Positions 11,001 through 64,000 of a stretch of 64,000 nucleotides of DNA are shown in pieces. The stretch's first letter is position 1. Each line of letters starts with the position of its first letter. The notes under the pieces are model-generated. The model saw only the letters and a program-made list of their open reading frames with translations, was not told the origin of the DNA and made no database searches. Origin of the DNA: Desulfobulbaceae bacterium (GTDB lineage: Bacteria > Bacteroidota > Ignavibacteria > Kapaibacteriales > UBA2268); contig JAGXRP010000066.1 in the NCBI GenBank assembly GCA_018335795.1, positions 94,317 to 158,316 on the forward strand, in the 5' to 3' direction. Made by a program: the position numbers and the translations under genes.

Positions 11001-13717
11001 CTTTGGTTATTAACTCAGATGTTGAAATTCAAGGTGACTTGTATGTAGATGACATTTGGGCTGACGAAGTAAATGCAAACGTTCTTAACGCTGCTTTAGG
11101 CGTATTTGACAATTTGCAAGTTAATATGAATGCTAACGTTGATGGTAACACTACTCTGAACACTTTAGCTACTTCAGGTAACGCTACTGTTGGCGGTACT
11201 TTCGGTGTTACAGGCGTTACAACATTAAGTAACAATTTAATTGTTAACGGTACTTCGACATTGAATGGTGCAGCTCAAGTTAATAATACATTGAATGTAA
11301 CAGGTAATGCTGTACTCAATTCCGCTCCCGGCATGCAAAACACTACAGTTGACAACTTGAACGCTTTGGGCGCTCTAGATGCTGTTGGTGCTATCACAGG
11401 TCAAAGCACTTTGGGTATTGCAGGTAATGTTACTCTTAATACTGCTCCTGGTATGCAAACTACTACTGTTGACAACTTGATTGGTAATGGTACTGCTACA
11501 ATTGCCGGAGCAACTATAATTAACAATACTTTAAATGTAACCGGTCTTTCAACATTATCGAACACTCAAGTTAATGGAACATTAGGTGTAACCGGAGCTA
11601 CTACTTTAGGTAGTACTTTAACTGTTGCAGGTTTGACTCAAATTAATAACAATTTGAACGTAACCGGTAATGCAAATGTTAATGGTAATGGTATTTTCGG
11701 TGGTAACATTAGTGCAGTAAATGGCATCTTCAGTGGTAATATTTCTGCTGTTAATGCTACTTTAAGCGGTACTTTGACTGTAAACGGTGCATACACTCGT
11801 TTGTCAAACACTACTGCTTTACAAGTACAAGGTGGCGACGCCGGAACTCTTGGTGAGCTTTTAGTTAGCCGCGGTGCCGGTTTATCACCTGAATGGACTA
11901 CTTCTATTCCTTATCTTGAAGTTGTTAACCTTGATGTATTAAACAATTTAAGTGTTGGTAATGATACTGATATGATGGGCGACCTTACAGTTGCCGGTGA
12001 TGTATTCTTAAACACTAATGGTCCTGGCTTCTCTACATTCGTACAAGAACTCGTAGTTGCTCAAGATGCGGTTGTCGGTAACGATCTAGCTGTTGGTAAC
12101 GATGGTGTATTCGGTAATGACCTTTTGGTTGTTGGTGATGGAACTGTTGTTGGTGATGCTGATGTATTTGGCGATTTAGAAGTTATGACTAACACTTCAT
12201 TACTTGGTACTTTAGATGTAACCGGTGTTTCTACTTTTGCAAGCGAAGTTGAATTCAACGGAGCTAATGTTGCATTCTCACCGGGTACTGAAGTACTTGC
12301 TTGGGATCCTACATTAATGACAGCAAACTTCGAAGGCGATGCCGGCGATTTATTCGTTAGTCGTGGTGCAGGTTTATCACCTGAATGGACTGACGAACTT
12401 CCTGACCTTACAGTTTCAGGTCTTTTGACTACTATGAACTTGCACGTTACTAATGATGCTCAAATTGATAATGACTTAACTGTAGGTAATGACATCGTTG
12501 TTACAGCCGGTGATGTTGATATCCAAAATGGTAGCTTAAACGTTGGTTTAGATGTAACTGTTGGTAATGACTTAGCAGTTATCAATGATGGTATCTTCGG
12601 AAACGATGTTATCATTCTTGGTGGTGACCTTGACGTAATTGCAGGCGATGCAAATGTTGCTGGTGATGTAAACGCTACAAACGTTAACACAACTAACAAT
12701 GTTAATGCCGGTAATGATGTAAACGCCACTAATAATGTAAACGGTACTAATTTGAATGCATCTAACAATGTTAATGCAACAAACAATGTAAACGCTACAA
12801 ATGTTAATGCAACTAACAATGTTACTGCTCAAAACAACTTAGTATCAGTTAATAATACAGTTGTTGGAAATAACTTGCTTGTTACTAACAATGCTACTAT
12901 CAGCGGAAACTCACATGTATTGGGTAATTCATTAGTAAACGGTACATTAACTGTTGACCAAAATTCATTGTTCAAACAAAGCGTTACTATTAATCAAAAT
13001 TTAACGATTGACCAAAATCTTACAGTTACAGGTTCTTCAACATTCGGTAATACAGTCAGTATTAATAATGCTGATTTGAATATCACTAATGGTGGTATAA
13101 ATGTAATCGGAGATGATGTATTCTTTGGTAACCCTGTAGGATTTAACAATCCTTCAGCATTCGAAGACCTCTACGTACGTGGAAATATCGAAGCTGACGG
13201 TATGATTTTCGGTGCTATCAACCCAGGTTTGACTCCGGGTTCGGTAACATTCGGGGGAGCAGTAGGTCAAATCGCTGAAGATAATGCTAACTTGTTCTTC
13301 AATGACGCAACAAACAGATTGGGTATTGGAACTAATACACCTGCTCAAACTCTTGATGTAAACGGTACAATGAACGTAAGTGGTGCTTCAACTCTTGCTG
13401 CTGCTACTTTGAGCGGTAACTTGACTGCAAATCGCAGAATGATTCACGGTTATACAACTGCAGCTAATTTAGCAGCACTTGTTGCCGCGATAAATAACGG
13501 TACAACTGTTATTCAATACCAAACTGCTAACGCTCTCGAAGCTAACCTCGTAGGTGCTTTGCCTGCAGGAACAACCGGACAAATTATCTATATAATTAAC
13601 AATACTTCAATTGGTTCGATTAGTGTTGGCACTCCTGTCAACCCAAGAACAATTGTTCAAAGCCAAATGGTTGCCTTAATTTACAATGGTACAAATTGGA
13701 TTCCAATGGCTAACTAA
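8048..13717 (+). CDS. Giant secreted fibrous adhesin-like protein (1889 aa) with tail-fibre-like repeats and a C-terminal domain shared with the next gene
   Basis: Signal peptide. Repeated modules with the motif I(T/A)xxKIADxAVTxxKL follow, each trailed by a Trp-rich block (GPVGTILGW(D/N)GT(Q/E)WIET(S/N)VP(E/T)WE). Next comes a long run of 'NxTGxxxLNxxxTxxNL' fibre repeats and an Asn-rich hexapeptide repeat (NVNATN). There is an internal duplication (VSRGAGLSPEWT occurs twice). The C-terminal ~70 aa are conserved with the 13873-17580 protein. Confidence 0.7.
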   Translation: MKKLLLLSFVLLSLIIASVGSVMSQSRLINYQGNILDQQSKPYEGSAQMTFELYDKEFGGSQLWSEIQNVTMNKGYFNVYLGSNTPFPANFSFNRELWVQVTVGTSAPYPRSPLTMVPAAFVSEVASLARFAEDIPDGLVNLNKLSNEVKIMGGDLTGTLPNPRLRPGAILEGIEDGSITQSKLAPNVTTRPSGPASGDLTGFYPDPLIAPGAVNTFKIADGAVTTEKIADYAVTYNKFQNALGPVGTILGWDGTQWIETSVPEWELGKIVEVYAGDGLYVNEMSSYYGNGFFDVQVGIAESGVITSKIADEAVTYGKLQNAYGPVGTILGWNGTEWIETNVPTWETDAVIGNEVLDATPNRGLLRAGLGTLASPFTLGIADNGVVNSMIANQAVSLNKLANGSTGGQVMYWNSVLGQWMLSAGSAPMDNNVIRWVDNGTTRQPQWTSDDAIVGNEVVNATPMGGLVRAGAGTEASPYTLGVMPGGITEPMLAQGAVSLSKLAPGNQIGQIIWWDALTSQWRYSTGAAPTQDYVVKWVDAGGSLTPQWAPDDMTIPYEKSITEHVQTLFALTNNGNSDVMSLTTTGTGDGLMINMPQDLPGGGHALHLNGAGFLQPALNVNVESEYGLPNGAGTVNATINTLDATSAGFKINTVVNDDGNNAYDVDGLQSFLTVNNAVNNGYYTGTWSFAETDNGIATGVWGEAEGMNAQSNFGVIGSADDAAVSNIGVLGVANAPVYQDYTTMFPAGFGAGVTALNEGGSFMDYGVFALVNGEATGAYVEAEDAVAGVFTNNSDMSETVLAFNQGNGDVVVGIANEGSAFVGFNESAMGTAVIENIGTGSAIETASMGTDFPTVLAENLNDGPAAWFVGMNPQADGFANNNSVAAVVNMNNGRALYVEGGAANDENGGNPYFQDPANNDDASLIVVNTAYQGGAPWGTAIKTYGDIWANSTIGASQLVALDALVIGDPLGLNTTLYPPMYPGDPLVINSDVEIQGDLYVDDIWADEVNANVLNAALGVFDNLQVNMNANVDGNTTLNTLATSGNATVGGTFGVTGVTTLSNNLIVNGTSTLNGAAQVNNTLNVTGNAVLNSAPGMQNTTVDNLNALGALDAVGAITGQSTLGIAGNVTLNTAPGMQTTTVDNLIGNGTATIAGATIINNTLNVTGLSTLSNTQVNGTLGVTGATTLGSTLTVAGLTQINNNLNVTGNANVNGNGIFGGNISAVNGIFSGNISAVNATLSGTLTVNGAYTRLSNTTALQVQGGDAGTLGELLVSRGAGLSPEWTTSIPYLEVVNLDVLNNLSVGNDTDMMGDLTVAGDVFLNTNGPGFSTFVQELVVAQDAVVGNDLAVGNDGVFGNDLLVVGDGTVVGDADVFGDLEVMTNTSLLGTLDVTGVSTFASEVEFNGANVAFSPGTEVLAWDPTLMTANFEGDAGDLFVSRGAGLSPEWTDELPDLTVSGLLTTMNLHVTNDAQIDNDLTVGNDIVVTAGDVDIQNGSLNVGLDVTVGNDLAVINDGIFGNDVIILGGDLDVIAGDANVAGDVNATNVNTTNNVNAGNDVNATNNVNGTNLNASNNVNATNNVNATNVNATNNVTAQNNLVSVNNTVVGNNLLVTNNATISGNSHVLGNSLVNGTLTVDQNSLFKQSVTINQNLTIDQNLTVTGSSTFGNTVSINNADLNITNGGINVIGDDVFFGNPVGFNNPSAFEDLYVRGNIEADGMIFGAINPGLTPGSVTFGGAVGQIAEDNANLFFNDATNRLGIGTNTPAQTLDVNGTMNVSGASTLAAATLSGNLTANRRMIHGYTTAANLAALVAAINNGTTVIQYQTANALEANLVGALPAGTTGQIIYIINNTSIGSISVGTPVNPRTIVQSQMVALIYNGTNWIPMAN
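12664..12840 (+). repeat. In-frame Asn-rich 18-nt (hexapeptide NVNATN-like) tandem repeat within the 8048-13717 CDS
   Basis: Translation reads NATNVNTTNNVNAGNDVNATNNVNGTNLNASNNVNATNNVNATNVNATNNVTAQNN. The nucleotide sequence repeats aatgt(t/a)aa(t/c)gc(a/c)ac(t/a)aac units. Confidence 0.6.
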
Positions 13718-13872: not shown

Positions 13873-16800
13873 ATGAAAAAATTTCATATTCTTATTTTTG
13901 GTGTAATCTTCTTCATGGCAACAAGCTTGACACAAGCTTTGCCTGAGATATTTTACACCAATTTTGCGAGAACGACCGGTGGCGGATTAGTCCTAAACTC
14001 GAACGTTGACGTAAGAATAACCATTTTCGACGGCGCTACCGAGGTTTATAAAGAAACCCATGCAGGTATTACTACAGATGAATTTGGTTTATTTACAGTT
14101 CCCGTTGGTGGCGGGGCTCCGGTTATTCCTTTTAATAACGCTATGTACGATGCTTTGATTGCTTCAAACAATCTAAATATCTACGCAGAAAGTGATGCCG
14201 GTGACGGTTACAGATTTATTGAATTACGTTCACTTTTGAATACAGCATTAAGAAATGCTGAAGTTCAAGGAATAGTGACTTTACAAAGTGCTTACGATGC
14301 TGGTAACGAAATCGAAGTAGTTGTTGGATTCCCTGTTGACCTTACCGGTACAGGCTTAATCCAATCGGCAGCTTCAGTTGCTGACATCAATACAAATGGT
14401 CCTTCAACATTGACTACAAAACAATATGTTGACGACGCTATTGCTGCAATTTTCCCATTGCCACATATTACTGAAGGCGATGCTATTGAAATTTTACCCG
14501 ATGGTTATTATGATGGTCAAACTACTCAATCTATTGGTGTAGCTGACAACACTATTTCTAACGTAAAAATCCACGATAATACGGAATTCCAAGAAGTCGA
14601 AGCTTTAGGCGACGGTTTTGCAGATGGAACTGATGTTGGTTCTTGGTCAGTTACAAACTCTAACAGAGTATTAAATTTTGCCGGTGTTGGTTTGACTAAT
14701 GTAACTCGCGACGGTAATACAATTTTAATTGACGGTTCTGATAACTGGGGTTTGCAAGTTGTCGAATCAGATGCAACTCTGATTGGTGATGGTACTATTG
14801 GTAATGAACTTGGCGTTAATCAAGATTTCCCTTTCGTGTGGACTTCTTACCACCAATTTATTCCTGATACTGACGAACCTGCAATTGCTCTTGACGGAAG
14901 TAGTTCATTAACTAATCCTACTTTGATTGCCGTCGGTAATGCAGACCCAGCCGTTGTTGACTTCATGTTCGACGGTGAAATGGTCCTTTTGGGCACTGAT
15001 GATACTGATGCTAATGCTGAATTGACTGTTTACGGTTCAACTCAAATGTTAGGTCAAAAAAATGACGCTCAACCTGAACTTTATGTAGAAGGTGACGTTG
15101 CTGTTACCGGTTCTGTTGATGCTGAACGCGGATTCTTTACTTTTGATAATACAGGTAACGCAGGTGCATTTACTATTATGGCTAATGCCACCGGTGATAC
15201 ACCTTCGAGCCCTACTTTCCCAACTGTAGCTCAAGCTGTTACCGCTATAGCAACTTATTCAGGAGTTGCTCCAAATATGACTGATATGCTTGTTGCAAAT
15301 AATGGCTTAACAAACGCCGGAGCAGGGATATTAGCTGTCGGTACTTACGGTGGTTCACGTTCTGCTAACTTGGTTGCAAATGTCGGTACGGTTGGTCATG
15401 CTTATAATTCATTGAGTCCTTATAATTCTCATGGTATTGTAGGTATGGTTACTACTACTTTATCCGGTGCAACTGAAATTGGAACTGCATTAGGTTTAGG
15501 TATTAACTCCGGTATTACAGGTATCAATTTAGGTGTTGCTGCAAATGATTATGCAGGTTACTTTATTGGTAATGTTAACGTTGATGGCGATTTTAATGGT
15601 ACTGGTAATGCAGTATTTGAAATGGATGTAAATGTTCAAGGTAATGCAGATGTTGATGGTGATTTGAATGCTGATGGTGCAACTACTTTAGGTGGCACTT
15701 TAGATGTAGCTGACAACGCAGTATTTGCAATGGACGTAAATGTTCAAGGTAATGCAGATGTTGATGGTGATTTAAATGCTGATGGTGCAACTACTTTAGG
15801 TGGCACTTTAGATGTAGCTGACAACGCTGTATTTGCAATGGACGTAAATGTTCAAGGTAATGCTGATGTTGATGGCGATTTAAATGCTGATGGTGCAACT
15901 ACTTTAGGTGGCACTTTAGATGTAGCTGACAACGCAGTATTTGCTATGGACGTAAATGTTCAAGGTAATGCTGATGTTGACGGTGATTTGAATGCTGATG
16001 GTGCAACTACTTTAGGTGGCACTTTAGATGTAGCTGATAACGCAGATTTTGCTATGGATGTACAAATTGATGGCATTTTGAATGTTGACGGTACTTCTAA
16101 TCTTAATGGCGATGTAAACCTTGGTGATGTAAGTACAGACAATGTTGTATTCAATGCAATGGTTAATAGTGCTGTAGTTCCATCTATGGATAATACATAT
16201 TCATTAGGTACTGATGCTAACCGTTGGGCTGATGTTTATGTTGGTCCTGCCAGCTTGAATATTGGTACTTCGGGTAACAATGCCGTAATTAGCTATGATT
16301 TAGGCAACAATTGGGTTGATATTAATACTGACCTCAATGTACAAGGTACAGTTTATGGTACAACTTTGAATGGTGCATATACTGAAGGTTCTGTTCTTTT
16401 CGGAGCTGCCGATGGTAGCATTACTGAAAATAATGGAGAACTTTTCTGGGATGATGCAAGTTCATACTTAGGTATTGGTACAGACGCTCCAGCTTCTAAA
16501 TTGCACTTAGTCGCACCTTTAGATGTAGCTTTAATTATCGAAGGTACTCAAGGCGACAGCAATCCTGACGTTTTGATTGACGGTGAAGTATTGATTTTGG
16601 GAAGTGTTAATGGTGATGCTGAATTTTGGATGAATGGTGGCGACGGTATGCTACTTGATGGTGGCGCAAGTTTGCACATTACTAACGGCGACGGTATCCT
16701 TTTAGACGCTGGTGCCAGTATGATTATTGATGATTTGGGAACTTTAAACGTTGATGGCGATGGTACATTTAACAATGACCTTTATGTTTCGAATAATTTG

Positions 16801-53638: not shown

Positions 53639-54148
53639 ATGAGGAGACTAATTTTAGGATTAATAATTTTTATAATGTCAATTATGATAATTAACGAGGC
53701 CAAAGCCTCGGGACCTATGGATAGAAATTTCGGCTTCGGAATCGTTTTTGGCGACCCATTCGGAGCCACAGTTAATTACTGGGTGACTAGAGAAAACTCA
53801 CTTGCTGCTTATATTGGTGCTTCATATTTTGGCGCATTGAGAATCGGTGGCGATTACCTTTTCCATTTCAATGCTTTCAATTCCCAAGTCGTCAAAATGT
53901 ACGCAGGACCTGGAATTGCAGTAGGCTTTGGACGTGGGCGAGGAATTATCTATAGCGAAAATAAAAATCGTTTCTATTATTGGGAAGATGACCAAGTTGG
54001 TATCGCTACTAGAGTAATTTTTGGCGTTAATATCACACCAGGAAGAGCTCCTTTCGAAATTTTTATCGAAGCCGGTCCTCTTATCGGCATATCCCCCGAT
54101 GTTGGAGTCAATGTTGATGCATCAATAGGCATTAGGTTTTATCCCTAA
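53639..54148 (+). CDS. Putative outer-membrane beta-barrel protein (169 aa)
   Basis: Signal peptide (MRRLILGLIIFIMSIMIINEAKA). Alternating hydrophobic/Gly-rich strands and a C-terminal aromatic motif (IGIRFYP). Confidence 0.4.
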   Translation: MRRLILGLIIFIMSIMIINEAKASGPMDRNFGFGIVFGDPFGATVNYWVTRENSLAAYIGASYFGALRIGGDYLFHFNAFNSQVVKMYAGPGIAVGFGRGRGIIYSENKNRFYYWEDDQVGIATRVIFGVNITPGRAPFEIFIEAGPLIGISPDVGVNVDASIGIRFYP

Positions 54149-54155
54149 GATTTTT

Positions 54156-54184
54156 TTGTAGTGCGAAATTATTCGTATATTTGC
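54156..54184 (+). promoter_or_regulatory. FCB-type sigma-A promoter (TTTG-N17-TATATTTG) upstream of tRNA-Pro
   Basis: ttTTTGtagtgcgaaattattcgTATATTTGcag. The -7 element matches TAnnTTTG and lies about 38 nt upstream of the mature tRNA 5' end. Confidence 0.5.
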
Positions 54185-54221: not shown

Positions 54222-54298
54222 CGGGATGTAGCGCAGCCCGGTAGCGCACCACTTTGGGGTAGTGGGGGTCGGCGGTTCAAATCCGCCCATTCCGACCA
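54222..54298 (+). tRNA. tRNA-Pro (anticodon GGG), CCA encoded
   Basis: The cloverleaf folds by hand: acceptor CGGGATG/CATTCCG, D-arm GCGC-AGCCCGGTA-GCGC, anticodon arm CCACT-TTGGGGT-AGTGG with anticodon GGG and G37, T-arm GGCGG-TTCAAAT-CCGCC, discriminator A plus CCA. It is close to E. coli tRNA-Pro(GGG). Confidence 0.9.
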
Positions 54299-54316
54299 AA
54301 ACAAAAACCCTTCCAT

Positions 54317-54345
54317 ATAGGGACAGAACAGCGTTCTGTCCCTAT
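54317..54345 (+). terminator. Perfect 13-bp hairpin directly downstream of tRNA-Pro
   Basis: atagggacagaac-agc-gttctgtccctat followed by aatattttt. Confidence 0.55.
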
Positions 54346-54468
54346 AATATTTTTGATAGATCCGAGGAAACTTCGGAAGTTTCCAAAGCTTCCGAAGTTT
54401 GGATTGCATGACTTCAGGTGTTACAACTGACGGAAAGAAGAAAATTTCTCAAAAAAAGTGAAATTTTA

Positions 54469-54499
54469 TTTGCACAGTTCAAAAAATTTTATATATTTG
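54469..54499 (+). promoter_or_regulatory. Consensus FCB-type promoter inside repeat unit 1
   Basis: TTTG-N19-TATATTTG. The predicted TSS at about 54506 is 30 nt upstream of a hairpin terminator. Confidence 0.5.
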
Positions 54500-54536
54500 C
54501 ATATTCCATTTTGTATGTTTAGAGCATTTTCCTACC

Positions 54537-54571
54537 AAAGCGAGCTATCCTTGCTCGCTTTAGTTTTTTTT
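54537..54571 (+). terminator. Rho-independent terminator of unit 1
   Basis: aaagcgagc/gctcgcttt stem followed by T8. Confidence 0.7.
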
Positions 54572-54648
54572 GTGCCCCTGTCCCTTCTTTGTAACACCTG
54601 ACGAGACAAGAAAATTTCTCAAAAAAAGTGAAATTTTATTTGCACAGT

Positions 54649-54669
54649 ATAAAAAATTTTATATATTTG
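54649..54669 (+). promoter_or_regulatory. Consensus FCB-type promoter inside repeat unit 2
   Basis: TTTGcacagtataaaaaattttaTATATTTG. Confidence 0.5.
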
Positions 54670-54736
54670 CATTGCCTTTAAAATTATTTTAAAAATATTT
54701 AATTTTTAAAAACAAAAACATGTAGAAGTTCTCGCA

Positions 54737-54773
54737 CCGAAGCAAGCTCCCCGTGCTAGCTTCGGTTTTTTTT
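54737..54773 (+). terminator. Rho-independent terminator of unit 2
   Basis: ccgaagcaagc/gctagcttcgg stem followed by T8. Confidence 0.7.
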
Positions 54774-55025
54774 GCCCACTGTGCCGTCCGTCAGTTGTAA
54801 CAACTGACGAGACACAAAATCCCCATTTGCCAAAGGGAGAAAGCGAGCTTGCGAGCAGGGGGATTTATATTTGTCCACTTTCCCATCTTTGTTCTCTGTT
54901 CTTTCAGTTGTTACAACTGACAGGAAAAGATAACCACATTATTTCACGCAATGACACACTATTTCGTTAAAAATGTTAATTTTGTAATGTGATTTTGATT
55001 GTTGCAACAAATTAACATATGCTAC

Positions 55026-57788
55026 ATGGCTGAGAACATCAAAGACAAACTGAACAAATTGGTTTTCGATTTTAAATTGTCCAACTATCGCGATTTAAAC
55101 GAGAGCCAAACACGAATTTCATACATTGATAGATTTTGGGAGCTTTTGGGATGGAATGTCCGCAATCCGCTCGAAGTCCAAGTGGAACGCACCGACAAAA
55201 GCTATATGGGCAGAAGACCCGATTACCGCTTCATCAAAGGGAACAAAACCCTGTTTTTTGTGGAGGCAAAAAAACCTGCCGAAGATTTGACTAATCCCCG
55301 ACACATCTATCAGACCAAGCTCTATTGCTGGAACGGTAAAGTGCCTATTGCAATATTGACAGATTTTGAAGAGTTCCGTCCTTTCAGGGCGCTCGGCAAA
55401 CCGCTGATTACCGATGCAAAAAAAGGGCTAATCAAAGAATTGGACATGGTTTGCGATGAATATCCCGACCGAGTTGACGATTTGTTGGCTACATTTGGGC
55501 GGGAAGCCGTTTTTGCGGGCTCTTTGGACGAACTTGTCAAACCCACTCAGTTAGAGCTTCGCGATACTGTGGATAAACATTTCCTCAATTCGCTATCCAA
55601 ATGGAGAATCGAACTCGCATCCCTAATCGCAAAAAAGAATCATTTCGATAATGAGTTCGAGCTTGCCGAAGCCACTCAACGAATCTTGGACAGGCTTGTG
55701 TTTCTGCGGATTTTGCAAGATAGGGACATCGAAAACACGGATTTCATCAAGAGCATTCTCGAGCATCGAGTAGGCAATTCCTATGCAGCATTTCTGTTGA
55801 TTTGCAAGGAACTCGCACCGAAATACAACGGGTTGATATTCAATCCGCATCCGCTGTCTGAAAATCTCACAATCGAAGCATCGCTATTCAAAAATATCGT
55901 CAAAGAGCTGAATGTGGAGGATTCGCCCTACAGATTCGACGAAATCCCCGTAGAAGTGCTCGGCACAATTTACGAACGATTCTTGGGTGACGAAATCAGC
56001 TTCGACAAGGGCAGACAAGTTGTCATAGACCAAAAGCCCGAAGTGCGGAAAGCGGGCGGCGTTTACTACACTCCGCAGTATATCGTCGAGTACATCGTCG
56101 CCAACACTGTCGGGAAGCTATTGGAGCAAGCCCGAACACCGGACGATGTCAGCCGGCTCAAAATTCTCGACCCCGCATGTGGCTCCGGCTCATTCCTTTT
56201 GGGGGCTTTCGATGCACTAATCAAATGGCACGAGGATTACTACAACGCTCATATCACCGAAATTCACGAAAAGAAGGGCAGAAACACGCATTTGCTGGCA
56301 TTCATGGACGAAGAGACCGGCAAGTTGAGATTGACCGCACGAAAAAAGGGCAGAATACTCCAAAACAACATTTACGGAGTGGATATAGACAAGCAGGCGA
56401 CCGAAGTAGCACAGATGTCGCTCTATTTGAAAGTGTTGGAGGGCATAGCCAAGGAGCCGCTCGCAGTCTTGGGATTCCAAGATGCACTGCTGCCAAAGAT
56501 GGACGACAACATCAAATGCGGCAACTCGCTAATCGGGAGCGACTTCATCAGCGACGACTTTTTCGGGATGTCCGAGCGGGAGCGGCACAAAATCAACCCA
56601 TTCGATTGGGAAGTCGCATTCCCATTCTTGAAAATGACCGGTGGCTTCGACGCCGTCATCGGTAATCCGCCGTATGGGGCTGAGTTGCATTTTGATACGA
56701 TTAGATTCTTGAGTGAGAAATATCAAGTCGGCACAACTGATACAGCTGCTTTATTCATGATAACTGCAACAAGAAAAATTAAAACGAATGGATTTGTTGG
56801 ATTCATAATTCCAAAACCTTTTACATATGCCTCTAATTGGAAAAAAGTTAGACAGTCATTATTGAGTGATATAAATAAGATAGTTGACTGTTCAAAAGTA
56901 TGGAAAGAAGTTAAGTTGGAGATGACAGTTTATATTAGTCAAAAAGGTTCTAATAGTAAAATATTTTCGTCGGGAATTATTAAAAAGGACAAAGTTTTAC
57001 ATATTGCTGATATAGATAAGAATCTATGTGAAGAATTTGGTTTTATACTTAATGGTGTTAGTCAAAATGAAATTGAAATTGCCAGAAAAATTAAATCTAA
57101 TGGTGTGAGTCTGAACAATTTAGTTACGAATCAAAGGGGTGGATTATACCAAAAATTCCTTAACAATTCAGGTGATTTATTTGCAATGGGGGGAAAGCAA
57201 ATAAATAGATTTGGAATTGATAATAGACCCAAAGGTATGATTGATGCAACAATAAACATTGATAATAAATCATTCATCAAGCCTGATTCAATTTTAGTTC
57301 AGAATATTGTTGCACATATTGCAAATCCAAGACCTCATATTAAGATTATAGCAACCTCAATTGTCAATGGTGACTTAAGTAAATATATTATTTTAGATAC
57401 AGTAAATCAATTAGTATGCGCCGAGCATGTATCAAGTAAATATATTCTGGGTATTATTAATTCAAAAATAATAAACTGGTACTGTTATCGATTTATTTTT
57501 GCAAACGCGATTAGGACAATGCATTTTGATAGCCCTGTTACCGAGAGAATTCCCATCCCCCAAGACCCTAACCCCCAAACCCAAGAAAAACTCATTGAAC
57601 TCGTCGAGCGAATGTTGCGATTGCACAAGGAATTGCAAACAGCCACAGAGTTCGACCGCAAGCACATAGAGCAATACATCTCCCGCACGGACAAAGAAAT
57701 AGACGCCCTCGTTTACCAACTCTACGCCCTCACTCCCGAAGAAATAAGAATTGTGGAGGGAGAGGGTGAGAAGGAGGATTTTGATTAA
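55026..57788 (+). CDS. Single-chain Type IIG/IIL restriction-modification enzyme (PD-(D/E)xK endonuclease + gamma-class N6-adenine methyltransferase + target-recognition domain), Eco57I/MmeI-like
   Basis: N-terminal nuclease motifs (RRPDYRF ... LFFVEAKKP). Methyltransferase motif I (ILDPACGSGSFLLGAFDAL) and motif IV (VIGNPPYG). A long variable C-terminal region follows. The probable start is ATG 55026 (MAENIKDKL). The tool ORF begins at an upstream TTG (54999). Confidence 0.8.
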   Translation: MAENIKDKLNKLVFDFKLSNYRDLNESQTRISYIDRFWELLGWNVRNPLEVQVERTDKSYMGRRPDYRFIKGNKTLFFVEAKKPAEDLTNPRHIYQTKLYCWNGKVPIAILTDFEEFRPFRALGKPLITDAKKGLIKELDMVCDEYPDRVDDLLATFGREAVFAGSLDELVKPTQLELRDTVDKHFLNSLSKWRIELASLIAKKNHFDNEFELAEATQRILDRLVFLRILQDRDIENTDFIKSILEHRVGNSYAAFLLICKELAPKYNGLIFNPHPLSENLTIEASLFKNIVKELNVEDSPYRFDEIPVEVLGTIYERFLGDEISFDKGRQVVIDQKPEVRKAGGVYYTPQYIVEYIVANTVGKLLEQARTPDDVSRLKILDPACGSGSFLLGAFDALIKWHEDYYNAHITEIHEKKGRNTHLLAFMDEETGKLRLTARKKGRILQNNIYGVDIDKQATEVAQMSLYLKVLEGIAKEPLAVLGFQDALLPKMDDNIKCGNSLIGSDFISDDFFGMSERERHKINPFDWEVAFPFLKMTGGFDAVIGNPPYGAELHFDTIRFLSEKYQVGTTDTAALFMITATRKIKTNGFVGFIIPKPFTYASNWKKVRQSLLSDINKIVDCSKVWKEVKLEMTVYISQKGSNSKIFSSGIIKKDKVLHIADIDKNLCEEFGFILNGVSQNEIEIARKIKSNGVSLNNLVTNQRGGLYQKFLNNSGDLFAMGGKQINRFGIDNRPKGMIDATINIDNKSFIKPDSILVQNIVAHIANPRPHIKIIATSIVNGDLSKYIILDTVNQLVCAEHVSSKYILGIINSKIINWYCYRFIFANAIRTMHFDSPVTERIPIPQDPNPQTQEKLIELVERMLRLHKELQTATEFDRKHIEQYISRTDKEIDALVYQLYALTPEEIRIVEGEGEKEDFD

Positions 57789-57907
57789 ACGTTTCCCACA
57801 TATATACTTAAAAAATATTATGAATTCCTAAAAATGTTGAAATCTTTTTTGGTTATTTTTTACTTTTGGAGGCTTATATTTGCTTTTTTAATGTTAAAGG
57901 ATTTAAT

Positions 57908-59026
57908 ATGAGTAAGGTAGTATATGTTGATGAATCAGGCGCACATGGTTTTAATAGTTCGGATTCAAGAGGTAATTTTTATGTCATTTCGTTGGTCATT
58001 ATTGATGAAGTGAAGCGAAGTGATTTTGAATCAAAATATTTATCGGTGATTAGGAATCATCATCAGAGCGAGTTTTTAAAGTATTCAACTCTTAAAAAGA
58101 AGCGAAATTGCAATGAAATCATTGACGAAATTATGAAGTTAGAATTCTCGTTTTTCTCCTTAGTTGTTGACAAGAGTAAAATTCATAAGGATAGTGGATT
58201 GAAGTTTAAAACAGTATTTTACAAATTTCTTCATAGAATTGTGTATGAACGACTTTTTAAATCATTTCAAAAAATTAATATAATCAGTGATGATTATTGT
58301 GATGATGATTTTCATGATAGTTTTAAAAAATATATTAAATCTATTACTCAAGGAATGAGCTTATTCAAAGATGTAGAGATTACATTTGTAAATCGTGATC
58401 CCATTGTACAATTGTCAGATATCATTTCTGGTGTTTTTAGAGATAAACAGATAAATGAGCAAATTGATATTTACAATAAGTTAAAGACAAAATCACTATT
58501 TTGCTATAATTTCCCTCAGTCTTTTTACATAAACCAAGATAATGTAAATGATAGTTTGTTAGAGCAGAACGGAGTATTGAATTCAGATATTATTCAAGAA
58601 ATGTCTATTAAAGTCACTATAGAAGCAATTCATAAATTAAAGGATGAAAATTCAAAATTTTTATTACATCTACTATTGTTGAATTCCTTCTCTTTACATG
58701 ATGATTATATTCACAGTCATAAAATTGTGAATCACTTTAAAGAATTTTTTGATATTGACATTGAGGAGAATCAAGTCAAACGGAGCATGATTCCAAAATT
58801 ACGAGACAAAGGTGTTTTAATTTCAAGTTCTCCAAAAGGATATAAATTACCTACGAAATATTCTGATATATTGGATTATATTGCAATAACTGATAGGAAC
58901 GTTAATAACCAGATAAATAGGTTAGAGAATTTTCTGAAAGATTTTGCAATAAAGCTTGATAAGCCGATTCACGATTTAGTTGATGAAAGTAAGTATTTTA
59001 AATTGAATCAGATATTGGCTCGTTAA
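57908..59026 (+). CDS. DUF3800-family protein
   Basis: Begins MSKVVYVDESGAHGF, the characteristic (I/V)Y(I/V)DESG N-terminus of DUF3800. It ends at about 372 aa and is very AT-rich. The likely start is 57908 (the tool ORF starts 57866). Confidence 0.55.
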   Translation: MSKVVYVDESGAHGFNSSDSRGNFYVISLVIIDEVKRSDFESKYLSVIRNHHQSEFLKYSTLKKKRNCNEIIDEIMKLEFSFFSLVVDKSKIHKDSGLKFKTVFYKFLHRIVYERLFKSFQKINIISDDYCDDDFHDSFKKYIKSITQGMSLFKDVEITFVNRDPIVQLSDIISGVFRDKQINEQIDIYNKLKTKSLFCYNFPQSFYINQDNVNDSLLEQNGVLNSDIIQEMSIKVTIEAIHKLKDENSKFLLHLLLLNSFSLHDDYIHSHKIVNHFKEFFDIDIEENQVKRSMIPKLRDKGVLISSSPKGYKLPTKYSDILDYIAITDRNVNNQINRLENFLKDFAIKLDKPIHDLVDESKYFKLNQILAR

Positions 59027-59126
59027 GAATTTTGTCCCATCAGTTGACAACTTACGGAACAACAAGGAGTTATTATGATTTTCGATAATGAAACATTTAC
59101 AAATTCATGCGAAACAATATAAAACT

Positions 59127-59867
59127 ATGTCAAAATCAAAAATAGAATGGACAGAGAGTACATGGAACCCGATTACGGGGTGTACGAAAATTTCTTCCGG
59201 TTGCCGATTCTGCTACGCAGAAATTATGGCAAGAAGGTTGCAAGCTATGGGGCAACCCAAGTATGCCGATGGTTTCAAGCTGACTATTCACCCGGATACC
59301 CTTGACGAGCCATATACTTGGAAAAAACCCAGAGTGGTATTCGTTAATTCGATGAGCGATATTTTTCATAAGGACGTTCCGATTGACTTCATCCAAAAAA
59401 TTTTCAAGGTAATCAACGACAATCCGCAACATGTTTTTCAGGTTCTGACCAAACGGGCAGATGTACTATATAAATATGACAGCGAGGGTTTGCTGAATTG
59501 GTCGGAGAATTTGTGGATGGGTGTAACTGTGGAAAGTTCTAAAGTTACCAAAAGAATAGATTTTTTGAGACGAACCGGTGCACATGTAAAATTTCTCTCC
59601 TGCGAACCCTTGATTAGTGCTATTCCCAATATGAATCTTAGCGGAATTGATTGGGTAATTGCCGGTGGCGAAAGCGGACGCACTCCACGCCCAATAGACA
59701 AAGAATGGGTGCTCGACATAAAGCAACAATGCGACAATCTGGGCGTTGCCTTTTACTTCAAACAATGGGGCGGTACAAATAAGAAAAAAAGCGGTAGAAT
59801 GATTGATGGCGTTACTTATGATGCCATGCCCAGAAGCGTCACAATATCCAACACCAAAACGGCATAG
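59127..59867 (+). CDS. Gp37/Gp68-family protein (DUF5131) with three-Cys motif
   Basis: MSKSKIEWTESTWNPITGCTKISSGCRFCYAE (Cx6CxxC) ... VFVNSMSDIF ... VIAGGESGRTPRPIDKEWVLDIKQQCDNLGVAFYFKQWGG. This matches the DUF5131 family pattern as I recall it. The likely start is 59127 (the tool ORF starts 59088). Confidence 0.7.
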   Translation: MSKSKIEWTESTWNPITGCTKISSGCRFCYAEIMARRLQAMGQPKYADGFKLTIHPDTLDEPYTWKKPRVVFVNSMSDIFHKDVPIDFIQKIFKVINDNPQHVFQVLTKRADVLYKYDSEGLLNWSENLWMGVTVESSKVTKRIDFLRRTGAHVKFLSCEPLISAIPNMNLSGIDWVIAGGESGRTPRPIDKEWVLDIKQQCDNLGVAFYFKQWGGTNKKKSGRMIDGVTYDAMPRSVTISNTKTA

Positions 59868-60009
59868 GTTCAATCCCATCTTTGTTCCTGAACCGAAACT
59901 AATGTACCAAAATCAAAACAAGGAAATCCCCCGAAAGCCGTTCCCCCTCTTGTAAGAGGGGGTTAGGGGGTGTTCTGTATCAAAAAAAAACAAAAAAAAA
60001 CAAAAATAA

Positions 60010-60040
60010 TTTGCACAGTATAAAAAATTTTATATATTTG
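60010..60040 (+). promoter_or_regulatory. Consensus FCB-type promoter inside repeat unit 3
   Basis: Identical to the unit 2 promoter. Confidence 0.5.
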
Positions 60041-60104
60041 CATTGCCTTTAAAATTATTTTAAAAATATTTAATTTTTAAAAACAAAAACACAATTTCTC
60101 TACC

Positions 60105-60140
60105 AAAGCGAGCTCCCCGTGCTCGCTTTGGTTTTTTTTA
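60105..60140 (+). terminator. Rho-independent terminator of unit 3
   Basis: aaagcgagc/gctcgcttt stem followed by T9. Confidence 0.7.
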
Positions 60141-60268
60141 TACCCACTGTGCCGTCCGTCAGTTGAACAACTGACGAGACACAAAAACCTGCTTTGCCAA
60201 AGGGGGATTTCCCCAAAAAAAAGCTGCCCCAATCGAGACAGCCATTTTTGTACAATATTGCTATGTAA

Positions 60269-62398
60269 TTAATTCGATGGTTCGGATATCAATCCACGCT
60301 TGCGGAGTAATGGCTCAATTGATGGCTCGGCACCGCGGAATTTGACGTATAGTTTCATCGGGTCTTCAGAGCGACCGCGTTCTAAGATGTTTTTTCGTAA
60401 AGAAGTGGCTGTCTTTTGGTCGAAAATTCCGTTTTCTTTGAATGCTTCGAATGCGTCCGAATCTAACACGCCTGACCAAATATAGCTGTAATATCCCGAT
60501 GAATATCCACCTGCAAAAATGTGGTTGAAGTATGTGCTTCTGTATCTGGGGATTATTTCGTCAATTAGTCCGATTTTCTTCATCTCTTTTTCCTCGAATG
60601 AGTTAACGTCCGATGTAAATGGTTTTGTCAAGGTGTGGTAAGCCATGTCGAGGTATGATGCCGCAAGGTATTCGCCTGTAGCAAATCCTTGGTTGAAGTG
60701 CTCGCTGGCACGCATCTTATTCAATAATTCACGGGGAATGACTTCGCCTGTTTTGTAGTGCTTGGCATACATTGCCATTACTTCGTCTTCTGCCGCCCAA
60801 TGTTCCATCACTTGCGATGGCAATTCGACAAAATCACGTGGCACGCTTGTACCTGATATCGAGACGTAATCGCATTGCGAAAATAGCCCATGAAGCGCAT
60901 GTCCGAACTCATGGAATAGGGTTGAGGCTTCGTCAAAAGTTAATAGTGATGGCGTATCTCCCGTGGGTGGCGAGAAGTTGCAAACGATGCTTACTACAGG
61001 GTGCACTCGCTTTCCGTCTTTGTTGAATTGCTCGCGGAAGCTGGTCATCCATGCACCGCCGCGTTTGCTGGCTCTTGGATGGAAATCTGTGTAAAACACA
61101 GATAAATGGCTCCCGTCTTTGTCCAAAACTTCGTAACATTTTACGTCTTCGTGATATACGGGAATATTTTTGATTTCTTTGAAAGAAATTCCCCAAAGTT
61201 TGTTTGCAACAGTGAAGGCACCTTGTAATACGTTATCCAGTTTGAAATAGGGACGAAGTGCTTCTTCGTCCAAGTCGAATTTTTCTTGACGCACTTTTTC
61301 GGCATAATAGCGCCAATCCCATGGTTCGAGTTTGAAATCCCCACCTTCGCGATTAATAAGTGCTTGGAATTGCATAGCTTCGTCCTTTGCAACTTTCAGA
61401 GCCGGTTCCCATAATTGGTCTAATAATTTGTAAACTCCTTCGGGGTTTTTCGCCATATTTTCTTCTAAAATGAAATGTGCATGGCTTTCATACCCGAGTA
61501 ATTGAGCGCGTTGAATTCGCAAATTAACTAAATTTTTGATTATTTCCTTATTGTCGAATTCGTTACCGTTGTTGCCACGTAGCATATATGCACGCCAGAT
61601 TTTTTCACGCAAATCTCGTTTGGCTGAATATTGCAAAAAAGGTAATAGGCTTGGGTTTTGCAATGTGAACATCCATTTGCCCTTATGTCCGGCTTTAGTG
61701 GCAGTTTCGGCGGCTGCATCAATAAGCGATTGTGGCAATCCTACCAAATCTTCTTTTTTATCCAAGAGCATCTGGAAGGCGTTATTTTCTGCTAATACAT
61801 TTTCGCCATATTTTAATGTCAATGATGACATTTCCTCGTTGATTTTACGCAATTTAGCTTGGTCATTGTCGTTGAGTCCGGCTCCATTGCGGATGAAACC
61901 TTTGTAAGTTTCTTCAAGCAATACGGCTTTTTCGCCGGTCAATTTCAATTTATCTTTTTGTTCGTAAACGCTTTTGACTTTGTTGAATAATATTTTATTC
62001 AAACGGATATTGTCGCCGTGCTTTGTGAGTTCGGGAGAGATTTCGCGAGCAAAAGCTTGAATATCAGGGTTTGTATTTGCTGAGTTGAGGTTGAAAAATA
62101 CACGTGAAACCGAAGCAAGCAATGAGCCGGCGCGTTCCAAAGCCTCGATAGTGTTCTCAAAAGTTGGGACTGCACGATTATTAGTGATTGCGCCGATTTC
62201 GAGATTATGTTGATGGAATGCTTCGTCAAAAGCGGGTTTGAAATGCTCTATTTTAATCTTATCGAAAGGTGGCACCCCAAAAGGCGTATCGAATGGCTTC
62301 AATAGCGGGTTGTCTTCTTTTGCATTTGCAGACATAATATTCATAAATAGTATCCCAATAAACAGATTCATAATAATAAACTTCATCATTCTATCCAA
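60269..62398 (-). CDS. dcp: M3-family zinc metallopeptidase (peptidyl-dipeptidase Dcp / oligopeptidase A-like), secreted
   Basis: Signal peptide. HEFGHALHG (HExxH zinc site) with the downstream Glu context typical of M3 peptidases. 709 aa. Confidence 0.85.
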   Translation of the reverse strand: MDRMMKFIIMNLFIGILFMNIMSANAKEDNPLLKPFDTPFGVPPFDKIKIEHFKPAFDEAFHQHNLEIGAITNNRAVPTFENTIEALERAGSLLASVSRVFFNLNSANTNPDIQAFAREISPELTKHGDNIRLNKILFNKVKSVYEQKDKLKLTGEKAVLLEETYKGFIRNGAGLNDNDQAKLRKINEEMSSLTLKYGENVLAENNAFQMLLDKKEDLVGLPQSLIDAAAETATKAGHKGKWMFTLQNPSLLPFLQYSAKRDLREKIWRAYMLRGNNGNEFDNKEIIKNLVNLRIQRAQLLGYESHAHFILEENMAKNPEGVYKLLDQLWEPALKVAKDEAMQFQALINREGGDFKLEPWDWRYYAEKVRQEKFDLDEEALRPYFKLDNVLQGAFTVANKLWGISFKEIKNIPVYHEDVKCYEVLDKDGSHLSVFYTDFHPRASKRGGAWMTSFREQFNKDGKRVHPVVSIVCNFSPPTGDTPSLLTFDEASTLFHEFGHALHGLFSQCDYVSISGTSVPRDFVELPSQVMEHWAAEDEVMAMYAKHYKTGEVIPRELLNKMRASEHFNQGFATGEYLAASYLDMAYHTLTKPFTSDVNSFEEKEMKKIGLIDEIIPRYRSTYFNHIFAGGYSSGYYSYIWSGVLDSDAFEAFKENGIFDQKTATSLRKNILERGRSEDPMKLYVKFRGAEPSIEPLLRKRGLISEPSN

Positions 62399-62529: not shown

Positions 62530-63465
62530 TTATGATATGCGGATAACTCGAATCTTGAAGTTCTGAATATCGCCGGCTTTTTCACCGGTCGTAGTGCTAA
62601 ACAACTCACAAGAACCGGTGACTTCGAACTTTGTACCTGCACTTTGGGCAAAATTTTGGATAACTGCTGTACCTATGCAATTAAAAACTGTACCATTATG
62701 CTCTAAATACATAATAGCACCGGAGCTTTCATTAAAATTTACTGTTTGATTACTCTGATTCTGAATGCCGGTAGCAACAATCGAAATCCCAATTCTATAC
62801 ATTTCTTCTTCATCCTCATCATTAGAAATAACCATAGTTAGAGTTCCACTTTGTTGGTCATAAGCGGCAGCACCTTCCAATCTGTCGTCTGAAAATGTAA
62901 TGCTGGCAACTCCATTAATGGTCATTTGAATTTCCATGTACGAATAGTTAAGGTCATCATCCGGGTCATTATCATCTTCATCGGGTAATCTAATTGCTTT
63001 GAACGAGGCAGAAGTTACAGTAAAAGTTTCTAATCCATCCGAACTTATGAATTGACCTGAGAAAGTACCTTCGATTGTTTGACCAACAGCACCGTATTTT
63101 GTAATGTTGATTTTGCCCTTACCCGGTAATGCACCAAAAAGTAGGTTATCCTTCAAAATAAGAACATCATTATTTGGGTTAAAATCAAAACTACCAGTAC
63201 TATTTCCTTGGAATGTAATAGCCATTGCAAAAGCAGTCGGGTTTTGATTTCCAATTGGTACATATGATGTAAAGCCTATTTCTGTATTTCCGAACTTAAT
63301 ATCGTAGGCACCAAATCCGAGTTTGAAGGTCAAATCGCCTTTGTCTGATTTAACAACAGCAGAGTTCCCACCAATATTGTTGTTGTCCGTAGGATTTGTC
63401 GAGTTCTTACTGCAAGATGCTAAAGCCATTGCAAGTGCTAAAAGAATAATAGAAAGGTACTTCAT
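62530..63465 (-). CDS. Hypothetical lipoprotein
   Basis: Probable start MKYLSIILLALAMALASCSKNS (signal peptide and lipobox Cys). The body is Gly/Thr/Asn-rich and predicted beta-rich. No recognisable family. Confidence 0.5.
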   Translation of the reverse strand: MKYLSIILLALAMALASCSKNSTNPTDNNNIGGNSAVVKSDKGDLTFKLGFGAYDIKFGNTEIGFTSYVPIGNQNPTAFAMAITFQGNSTGSFDFNPNNDVLILKDNLLFGALPGKGKINITKYGAVGQTIEGTFSGQFISSDGLETFTVTSASFKAIRLPDEDDNDPDDDLNYSYMEIQMTINGVASITFSDDRLEGAAAYDQQSGTLTMVISNDEDEEEMYRIGISIVATGIQNQSNQTVNFNESSGAIMYLEHNGTVFNCIGTAVIQNFAQSAGTKFEVTGSCELFSTTTGEKAGDIQNFKIRVIRIS

Positions 63466-63610
63466 CTTACAATTTCCTAAAAAGTTTATAAACAAGTTAG
63501 GCAAATATAAGAATAATTTTAATTAAGGCAAAGCAAAAAAATCTGTATTTATATTAAATTATCACAGGAGTTAGGGCTAAGGGATATCAAATTTGTGGCA
63601 AATATTATTT

Positions 63611-64000
63611 CTAAAAATCCTTTTTCGTAAAAATTCTCTTTGTGAACAAAATTGGCGATGCAGTCCAAATTAACATTAGTACGATTGAAATGATTAGTCC
63701 GAGCGAAGTGCTGAAATAATTTCGGAATACTAAGCCCGTATAGCCAAGCACAGCGGCACTTTCGAAGTTCAGAATGACAGAAACGCGAGCCAAGTCCACC
63801 GGGTTGATGATTGTCGTGATGAGTATCATGTTGTCAAGCGGATAATCTTTTAGTAGGATTATCATCGAAAGGATGAGTGCGTCGTAAAGGACCGATGCGA
63901 ATAGCCACAACACGATTCCAAGCCCGAACCCGATGATTCGATTTTCGTTTTTCAATACGATGAGCAGCGATATGCCCGTAAATATGAATGTTAGAGCGAT
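63611..64000 (-). CDS. Integral membrane protein, 5'-truncated by the window edge
   Basis: The reading frame is open through position 64000 (upstream codons read ...IALTFIFTGISLLIVLKNENR). There are multiple hydrophobic helices. The tool's Met at 63955 is internal. Confidence 0.5.
   Translation of the reverse strand: MALTFIFTGISLLIVLKNENRIIGFGLGIVLWLFASVLYDALILSMIILLKDYPLDNMILITTIINPVDLARVSVILNFESAAVLGYTGLVFRNYFSTSLGLIISIVLMLIWTASPILFTKRIFTKKDF

Follow-up and report, generated by a model that had tools for sequence, protein, structure and literature searches.

An integrase-less defence hotspot 3' of tRNA-Pro in Kapabacteria, with non-coding repeats and island-restricted hairpins

Layout of the tRNA-Pro locus

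The stretch of DNA considered here, called the window throughout, is 64,000 nucleotides of contig JAGXRP010000066.1 from assembly GCA_018335795.1. Its sole tRNA gene, as called by ARAGORN, is tRNA-Pro(GGG) (54222-54298, + strand; Rfam 61.5 bits), and between that gene and a gene for an M3 family metallopeptidase lies an island of defence-type genes and non-coding repeats, which is the subject of this work. The island proper, delimited as the species-variable segment by blastn of the flanks, covers 54312-60210. Three open reading frames (ORFs) follow the tRNA directly on the + strand, as an earlier, sequence-only reading of this DNA had stated. Pfam and PADLOC find in them a Type IIG restriction-modification (RM) enzyme, a DUF3800-like protein (a weak match) and a DUF5131 protein.

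The left anchor of the locus is formed by the gene for an OPT transporter and by tRNA-Pro, and the right anchor by the M3 gene and its terminator. A motif search places a Bacteroidota-type promoter motif, TTTG-N17-TAnnTTTG, upstream of the tRNA gene (54155-54183, + strand), and the tRNA is followed by a terminator hairpin, TATAGGGACAGAACAGCGTTCTGTCCCTATA, with a T-run (54316-54346, + strand), which is a member of a genus-wide terminator-like repeat. The M3 gene encodes 705 amino acids (aa) on the - strand (60269-62386), convergent with the cargo, and homology to relatives resumes at the T-run of its intrinsic terminator (60222-60243, - strand). Neither the island nor the called genes within 10 kb on either side have an integrase, recombinase or transposase domain, in agreement with what had been read from the sequence.

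The cargo had also been described as GC-rich, which was taken as a sign of acquisition. The mean GC content of the island is 37.7%, as against 38.4% for the window, and the composition is a mosaic, so the GC argument fails. The constant part of the RM gene has 47% GC, its specificity domain 31%, the DUF3800-like gene 27.6% and the DUF5131 gene 42%; both extremes of the 1-kb GC windows across the 64 kb, 48.1% and 27.1%, fall inside the island.

Since the source is a metagenome contig, and since unitigs from Logan break exactly at the edges of the repeats described below, the repeats might be collapsed or chimeric joins made during assembly. This is very improbable. The window lies inside an ENA contig of 180.8 kb (ERZ27300255:k141_36725) with the same island arrangement, and a 166-kb contig in JGI 3300001813 matches the window at 100% identity over the full 13.7 kb of overlap, island included, so that the 181-kb and 166-kb contigs carry an identical arrangement across the whole island. 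The Logan unitigs of SRR6212587 agree with the window at 100% identity in the stretches of overlap, and their ends fall exactly where 31-mers become common to the repeat copies, which fits real copies with distinct flanks. The records L003, L005, L007 and L181 each match the window at 100% identity, the protein P0123 is that of the window itself, and all of the records represent one strain. Near-identical proteins have names at NCBI that place the organism in Candidatus Kapabacteria, which the NCBI taxonomy puts in class Eximiradiia of Bacteroidota. One NCBI metagenome-assembled genome (MAG) with identical proteins carries the label Desulfobulbaceae, which is probably a binning error.

A variable slot between conserved anchors

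Relatives were found through M3 homologues that are 94-95% identical at the amino acid level, and comprise L089 (GCA_023957315.1) together with L090-92 and L177-178, which come from JGI and Logan. Each of these keeps tRNA-Pro(GGG) together with the genes for the OPT transporter and M3. Their flanks are 87-90% identical to the window at the nucleotide level by blastn, and the relatives are therefore regarded as different species of one genus. The promoter motif of tRNA-Pro is kept in L089 and L090; the terminator hairpin still follows the tRNA in L089 and lies at the far end of the cargo in L090. On the left, homology breaks at 54354 in L089, past the terminator hairpin, and at 54311 in L090, 13 nt past the tRNA. 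On the right it resumes at 60215 in L089 and at 60211 in L090, at the T-run of the M3 terminator.

Between these breakpoints lie three unrelated gene sets, given that blastn of the variable parts of the three occupants yields just short motif matches. The cargo of L089 consists of a Fic/RhuM protein (PADLOC PDC-S23, E 2e-117) and a protein with a type IX secretion system (T9SS) tail, and that of L090 of a DUF1828 protein (PDC-M24B, E 1e-15) and two ORFs without a family match. PADLOC matches occur in all three occupants; the RM enzyme is the only established defence type among them, the PDC families being candidates.

The interval from tRNA-Pro to M3 is a variable slot with defence-type cargo that is different in each species. 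The suggestion that the site is a hotspot for the swapping of defence genes is thus supported by anchors that are kept, cargo that is unrelated and PADLOC matches in each set. Horizontal acquisition, for which the sequence-only reading had argued, finds its support in the unrelated cargo of two related species and in constant parts of the RM enzyme that are ~98.7% identical to those of other Kapabacteria. What lies 3' of tRNA-Pro is a genuine defence hotspot without an integrase, and as such a new case of a known kind in a lineage that has received little study. A comparison with relatives had been proposed that would look for tRNA-Pro followed directly by M3 and for a single copy of the repeat; neither was seen, and other cargo was found in their place.

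The position of the left breakpoint bears on a different history, in which a tyrosine-integrase element entered at tRNA-Pro and later lost its integrase and one attachment (att) copy. The island does sit just 3' of a tRNA gene, and such genes are classic targets for integration (PMC10121019; PMC10250203); DUF5131 also belongs to a phage protein family. A decayed island of this kind, which had been one of the two original proposals, is nonetheless unlikely. The variable DNA begins after an intact tRNA, at an offset that differs by lineage (54311 versus 54354), and the 3' end of the tRNA is not duplicated: it occurs once at up to 3 mismatches in an ungapped search, and its gapped alignment scores 22, as compared with a mean of 19.9 and a maximum of 27 for the shuffle null. 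There is no ORF of the size of an integrase pseudogene, and the cargo genes have separate histories. A 14-bp repeat in the island (described below) and the island end were each considered as a remnant of the tRNA 3' end and rejected, as neither the ungapped nor the gapped search gives a second tRNA 3' end. The tRNA terminator hairpin, which is duplicated in L089 and L090, was likewise rejected as an att site; it and a second hairpin type, CCCAC..GTGGGCTATGTTTT, recur elsewhere and are of a general terminator-like kind.

More distant genomes lack the arrangement. In HGW-Ignavibacteriae-1, with an M3 protein 93% identical to that of the window, other genes follow M3 and no tRNA lies within 10 kb. 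The GTDB species representatives include no close relative, the best M3 being ~62% identical and without the tRNA-Pro arrangement, and a scan of JGI metagenomes with the M3 protein gave no close relative among the matches listed.

A small ORF of 154-169 aa without a family match lies at 53639-54148, between the OPT gene and tRNA-Pro. It is present in the L090-type relatives, at 82% nucleotide identity, and absent in L089, where the tRNA follows OPT directly. Variation by insertion or deletion thus extends to the upstream side of the tRNA.

The cargo genes

The first cargo gene (55026-57788, + strand; Pfam and PADLOC) encodes an RM enzyme of 920 aa. Its Pfam matches are to Eco57I, N6_Mtase, MmeI_Mtase, TaqI_C and an HSDR_N-like region, and it matches PADLOC REase_MTase_IIG with E 6e-130. 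By sequence it has the make-up of a Type IIG enzyme, in that a single polypeptide combines an N-terminal nuclease, a gamma-class N6-adenine methyltransferase and a C-terminal specificity domain; an NPPY motif is found at aa 547-550. Residues 1-550 and 855-920 are ~98.7% identical to the homologues P0135, from HGW-Ignavibacteriae-1 (GCA_002839825.1; JGI Ga0246094_000081), and P0136, from an 85-kb contig of another Kapabacteria MAG, and residues 551-855, the specificity region, are unrelated to both. A further homologue of the RM enzyme, P0137, is encoded on a Logan contig of 5.2 kb. The swapped region corresponds to ~56676-57590 and matches the drop in GC content from 47% to 31%. Because the constant parts are ~98.7% identical and the M3 protein of HGW-Ignavibacteriae-1, the carrier of P0135, is only 93% identical to that of the window, the comparison points to recent exchange of the RM scaffold within the group. 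The specificity domain was replaced, and the constant region was recently shared with other Kapabacteria.

The second gene (57866-59026, + strand) has a weak Pfam match to DUF3800, at 24.6 bits with a cut-off of 21. Its start codon is uncertain, and other gene callers give a protein of 372 aa. The protein is a near-orphan, with the closest non-self homologue 35% identical. Its AlphaFold2 (AF2) model, with a mean pLDDT of 75.5, has an N-terminal domain that Foldseek matches to RNase HII (1eke, E 1e-4) and a C-terminal part that is winged-helix-like. The acidic residues D22, E23, D142 and D185 are invariant, and from the modelled fold the protein is a probable nuclease. The idea that it is a hidden integrase or recombinase was discarded, given that the fold is RNase HII-like.

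This RNase HII-like gene lies directly upstream of the DUF5131 gene, the pair covering 57866-59867. The DUF5131 protein (59088-59867, + strand; Pfam E 1.7e-95) belongs to the phage Gp37/Gp68 family, which is radical-SAM-related. It matches the PADLOC candidates PDC-M41B and PDC-M30B with E ~1e-122 and phrog_2045 with E 1e-88, and no solved structural relative was found by sequence. In PADLOC, DUF5131 is the 'B' component of the candidate systems PDC-M30 and PDC-M41. Together with the DUF3800-like gene it may make up a two-gene variant of such a defence candidate, in which the partner protein differs. The three cargo genes as a whole do not form one conserved module, because their histories differ: the RM gene is shared and swapped, the DUF3800-like gene is a near-orphan and the GC content is a mosaic.

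The non-coding repeat units

The cargo had been described as bracketed by two near-identical repeat blocks. Direct repeats of ~215 bp are indeed present at 54620-54837 and 59991-60204 and are 88% identical over 220 aligned columns, and the reported stretch of 83 identical nt is exact (54638-54720 = 60009-60091). Near-identity holds in patches only, however, and the family has three copies rather than two: A and B stand in tandem before the cargo and C after it, all three inside the variable segment. A 35-nt core of the 83-nt stretch has 3 matches in the window, as against 0.00 expected by chance.

Each unit has the same predicted anatomy, with TTTG-N19-TAnnTTTG followed ~30-60 nt downstream by a GC-rich hairpin and a T-run. 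This motif is the consensus promoter of Bacteroidota. The pattern TTTG-N17-21-TAnnTTTG occurs 12 times in the window, compared with 3.5 expected, and a third of these matches (4/12) are at this locus, namely the promoter of tRNA-Pro and those of the three units. Unit A (~54450-54573, + strand) has its promoter at 54469-54499, a body of ~30 nt and an intrinsic terminator at 54537-54561 plus a T-run. Unit B (54620-54773, + strand) has its promoter at 54639-54669, an AT-rich body of ~60 nt and a terminator at 54736-54766 plus a T-run. Unit C (59991-60141, + strand) is preceded by an A-tract and has its promoter at 60010-60040, then the body, then a terminator at 60102-60132 plus a T-run. The homology of B and C runs on past the units, to 54837 on the B side and to 60204 on the C side. 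The Logan unitig that carries the cargo stops at 59963, before the interrupted A-tract (A9-C-A9-C-A5) upstream of unit C (59964-60008); the stop could reflect heterogeneity of A-tract length in the population, or just the behaviour of assembly at low complexity.

Given that a promoter and a terminator bracket each short body, the units can be read as self-contained promoter-terminator modules with RNAs of ~70-100 nt. All three show what is expected of a small RNA (sRNA) gene, which is a predicted promoter and intrinsic terminator of its own around a short non-coding stretch, and no conserved ORF was found in them on reading the sequences. The fold z-scores are -4.6 for A, -2.6 for B and -6.3 for C, and the terminator stems of B and C show one compensatory pair change, A-U to G-C. 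The units are most likely small independent transcription units, either candidate sRNA genes or insulating promoter-terminator modules.

Similarity between the units changes from part to part. The region upstream is 90% identical between A and B and differs in C, and the promoters are 94-100% identical in all pairs. The body is 89% identical between B and C, with A at 37%; the terminator is 88% identical between A and C, 81% between B and C and 71% between A and B; and the hairpin is 96% identical between B and C. As judged from these alignments, the patchwork is that of a small paralogous family with gene conversion, unlike a simple att duplication.

The patchwork has to be weighed against the view that B and C are the attL and attR of a non-autonomous integrative element, either satellite-like or resembling a cis-mobilizable element (CIME), with its integrase elsewhere and the 83-nt stretch as the crossover. 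A direct repeat of ~215 bp that flanks the cargo, a perfect 83-nt core between more diverged flanks and the lack of an integrase in cis are what such an element would show. The presence of a third copy, A, in tandem with B, and the patchwork similarity itself are better explained by a paralogous family with gene conversion. Moreover, the anatomy of the units is that of a promoter with a terminator, no single 'attB' copy occupies the site in relatives, and searches of viral contigs, JGI metagenome contigs, plasmids and phages gave no match. Altogether, an att origin for B and C is improbable.

The searches that bear on the distribution of the units agree with each other. An exact-pattern scan for the unit promoter gave zero matches in viral contigs and zero in JGI metagenome contigs, and the non-coding array has no blastn match among plasmids or phages. 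A search by nhmmer with the three units, covering 2.57 Mb of retrieved loci and the rest of the window, returned only a weak hairpin of L089. No copy of the units and no single-copy site was found in the relatives. A different repeat block, CTTCGGAAG / CTTCCGAAG (54362-54402, + strand), lies ahead of unit A and has a homologous block in the hotspot of L089.

Hairpin elements and the 14-bp direct repeat

The sequence-only reading overlooked two further features of the island, which are six hairpins of ~35 nt and a perfect 14-bp direct repeat. The hairpin consensus is GTCCGTCAGTTG, then 1-3 nt, then CAACTGACGAGAC, and all six copies have the same orientation. A covariance model was built from these copies, so the bit scores that follow are those of training-set members. 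P0 (54405-54441, + strand; 40.2 bits) is followed by P1 (54576-54612, + strand; 34.3 bits), which has a degenerate left arm, and by P2 (54782-54818, + strand; 47.1 bits; fold z -4.0), which contains a perfect 19-nt palindrome, GTCAGTTGTAACAACTGAC. P3 (54895-54931, + strand; 43.9 bits) lies ~100 nt upstream of the start codon of the RM gene, P5 (59031-59065, + strand; 41.1 bits) between the DUF3800-like and DUF5131 genes, and P4 (60150-60185, + strand; 42.2 bits) after unit C. There is no hairpin between the RM and DUF3800-like genes. A search with the covariance model found no copy in the other 58 kb of the window, and an exact-pattern scan of viral contigs gave zero matches.

The 14-bp repeat, TCCCATCTTTGTTC, has its left copy at 54881-54894 and its right copy at 59874-59887, both on the + strand, with the right copy 6 nt after the stop codon of DUF5131, such that the three genes are tightly bracketed. 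None of 2000 flank shuffles gave a 14-bp match (P < 1/2000), and at up to 1 mismatch the repeat has just 2 matches in the window, as compared with 0.05 expected. The repeat resembles the degenerate left arm of hairpin P1 (TCCCTTCTTTGTAAC), and on that likeness it may be a decayed hairpin copy, not a target duplication.

The distribution of the hairpins, with six copies in the island at every module boundary and none in the other 58 kb, could suggest that they are sites of a recombinase acting in trans or of a single-stranded DNA (ssDNA) hairpin system, and that they delimit modules in the way of pdif or attC cassettes, with the 14-bp repeat as a decayed copy. Related sites with a CCGTCAGTTG half-site are present in L089 alone among the relatives, between its two cargo genes, as is a related CTTCGGAAG block, and the resemblance of the 14-bp repeat to the left arm of P1 fits as well. 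The details do not favour this interpretation. The loop or spacer is 1-3 nt and one copy lacks the left arm; the variable loop, from the sequence, suits a nucleic-acid stem-loop better than a fixed site for a dimeric protein. The sequences, as read, have neither the R-box consensus nor the size of attC, and no 11-6-11 Xer geometry. The L090-type hotspot has no hairpin element, no recombinase candidate was identified, and the picture would be the same if intergenic DNA had been duplicated locally. A role for the hairpins as recombination sites is thus doubtful. An array of the integron type, or of the type of clusters of attC sites lacking integrases (CALINs), was rejected, given that the hairpins measure ~27-37 nt and attC sites, with their RYYYAAC / GTTRRRY boxes, 57-141 nt, that the RM and DUF3800-like genes have no hairpin between them and that no R-box consensus was seen in a reading by eye, which used no dedicated attC model.

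If the hairpin were nevertheless the recombination site of an enzyme supplied in trans, the island could be viewed as a modular cassette platform, in which the promoter-terminator units would act as empty cassettes or portable 'handles'. Bacteroidota would then have a cassette system with its integrase in trans, analogous to pdif modules or CALINs, with unrelated sites. Such a platform is a long shot.

Two other hairpin types occur at gene ends in several genomes of the genus, CCCAC..GTGGGCTATGTTTT and GGACAGAAC-NNN-GTTCTGTCC, and they look like a REP-like or terminator repeat family. They are located at 12178-12228 and 14499-14523 in L090, 4140-4200 in L089, 1017-1120 in L004 and 15665-15677 in L173. 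Hairpins of the form CCCAC..GTGGGCTATG flank the cargo of L090 in inverted orientation, and Logan contigs break at these hairpins.

A possible route of cargo turnover

The account that best fits these observations, and one that is reasonably probable, is that the interval from tRNA-Pro to M3 is a replacement-type defence hotspot in a Kapabacteria genus (NCBI class Eximiradiia, Bacteroidota) that changes through recombination in its flanks together with local rearrangement. The present occupant is a mosaic of three paralogous non-coding modules of ~170-215 bp, with a 5-kb gene block between the second and the third. Each module combines a hairpin with a predicted transcription unit, made up of a consensus Bacteroidota-type promoter, a short AT-rich stretch and an intrinsic terminator. 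Once DNA has been taken up, cargo may turn over chiefly through homologous recombination within the conserved flanks, with local insertions and rearrangements at the module boundaries that the hairpins mark. The analogy is with cDHS1 of P. aeruginosa and with replacement islands in general, for which this route has been proposed (PMC10250203), and with the integrase-less immigration control region of E. coli, for which it is implied (PMC12707154). The patchwork similarity suggests that the repeat units recombine with one another. At 215 bp, B and C have the length needed for a RecA-dependent loss of the 5.4 kb that separates them; in the assemblies of the strain and the relatives that were read, no deletion variant, single-copy B/C site or circular form was seen. 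The other original proposal, that the repeats drive the gain and loss of cassettes, thus found no support.

Several points weigh against this account. All retrievable copies from the strain are 100% identical and no polymorphism within the species was seen, such that turnover is deduced from differences between species only. No true empty site, with tRNA-Pro and M3 and no cargo, was present among the relatives read. Flank-mediated replacement is argued by analogy. Copies of the units outside this strain were not found in any collection searched. The units match no Rfam family at the gathering threshold or up to E 10, where chance matches below threshold are all that appears, and they pair with the translation-initiation regions of M3 and of the three cargo genes no better than shuffled sequences do. 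Finally, the 14-bp repeat and the six boundary hairpins could instead be the footprints of a site-specific mechanism.

Other features of the window

A clade II-type nos cluster lies just past the M3 gene (62530-64000 in the window; 1957-8185 in L004), with genes for a cytochrome c, nos_propeller/NosZ, NosL, NosD, an ABC ATPase and an ABC permease. Elsewhere in the window, a period of 108 nt is repeated 5-6 times at 15477-16124 and looks in-frame, and further tandem or dispersed repeats that look in-frame are found at 12666-12828, 8729-9085 and 11288-11480. These repeats probably belong to large repetitive surface-protein genes.

Comparison with known systems

Hotspots of defence genes are known at tRNA loci (PMC10121019), and a distinction has been made between replacement and additive islands (PMC10250203). 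The closest parallel is cDHS1 of P. aeruginosa (Johnson et al. 2023), which has core flanks that include a proline tRNA, is not tied to one class of mobile genetic element (MGE), and has been proposed to change by recombination in its flanks (PMC10250203). The present locus resembles it in having variable defence content between core genes, a proline tRNA in one flank and no single class of mobile element. The two differ in scale and mode: cDHS1 has a median of 26 kb, reaches 224 kb, is additive and was described from >1600 genomes of one species, whereas this slot holds 2-6 kb and is represented by three occupant types from three species of an uncultured Bacteroidota class.

The immigration control region (ICR) of E. 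coli, hotspot #36, is a defence island without mobilising activity (PMC12707154). There and in replacement-type islands, short non-homologous cassettes swap between core genes without a mobilising gene (PMC12707154, PMC10121019), as they do here. The ICR is not anchored at a tRNA, its alleles are mostly Type I, Mrr and McrBC, and no promoter-terminator repeat or hairpin array is described there. Islands that target tRNA genes, P4-like satellites and integrative and mobilizable elements (IMEs) share the position 3' of a tRNA and the defence-type cargo. Unlike them, the island described here has no integrase and no tRNA-derived repeat, its tRNA is intact and the breakpoint lies downstream.

Swapping of target recognition domains (TRDs) in Type IIG enzymes of the MmeI and Eco57I kind and in Type I HsdS gives a constant scaffold around an unrelated central specificity region, just as in the RM enzyme of this locus. 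It concerns this one cargo gene, and leaves the island unexplained. The hairpins recall repetitive extragenic palindromic (REP) sequences, bacterial interspersed mosaic elements (BIMEs) and Correia-type elements, which are short imperfect palindromes at gene ends or between co-directional genes, some with promoters or terminators. Those elements are dispersed across the genome in tens to hundreds of copies, whereas here all six lie within 5.8 kb and the remaining 58 kb of the window has none. The hairpins confined to the island and the promoter-terminator repeats fall outside current models of hotspot turnover, and are the only part of the locus that might prove new.

How common such hotspots are in other clades has been posed as an open question (PMC10250203). 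The compact locus, of 2-6 kb, is a source of candidate defence genes, which include DUF5131 with its RNase HII-like DUF3800 partner, DUF1828 and Fic/RhuM. Together with its relatives, it adds the Kapabacteria, an uncultured class of Bacteroidota, to the clades with integrase-less, tRNA-anchored defence hotspots, which had been known mainly from Proteobacteria such as E. coli and P. aeruginosa.

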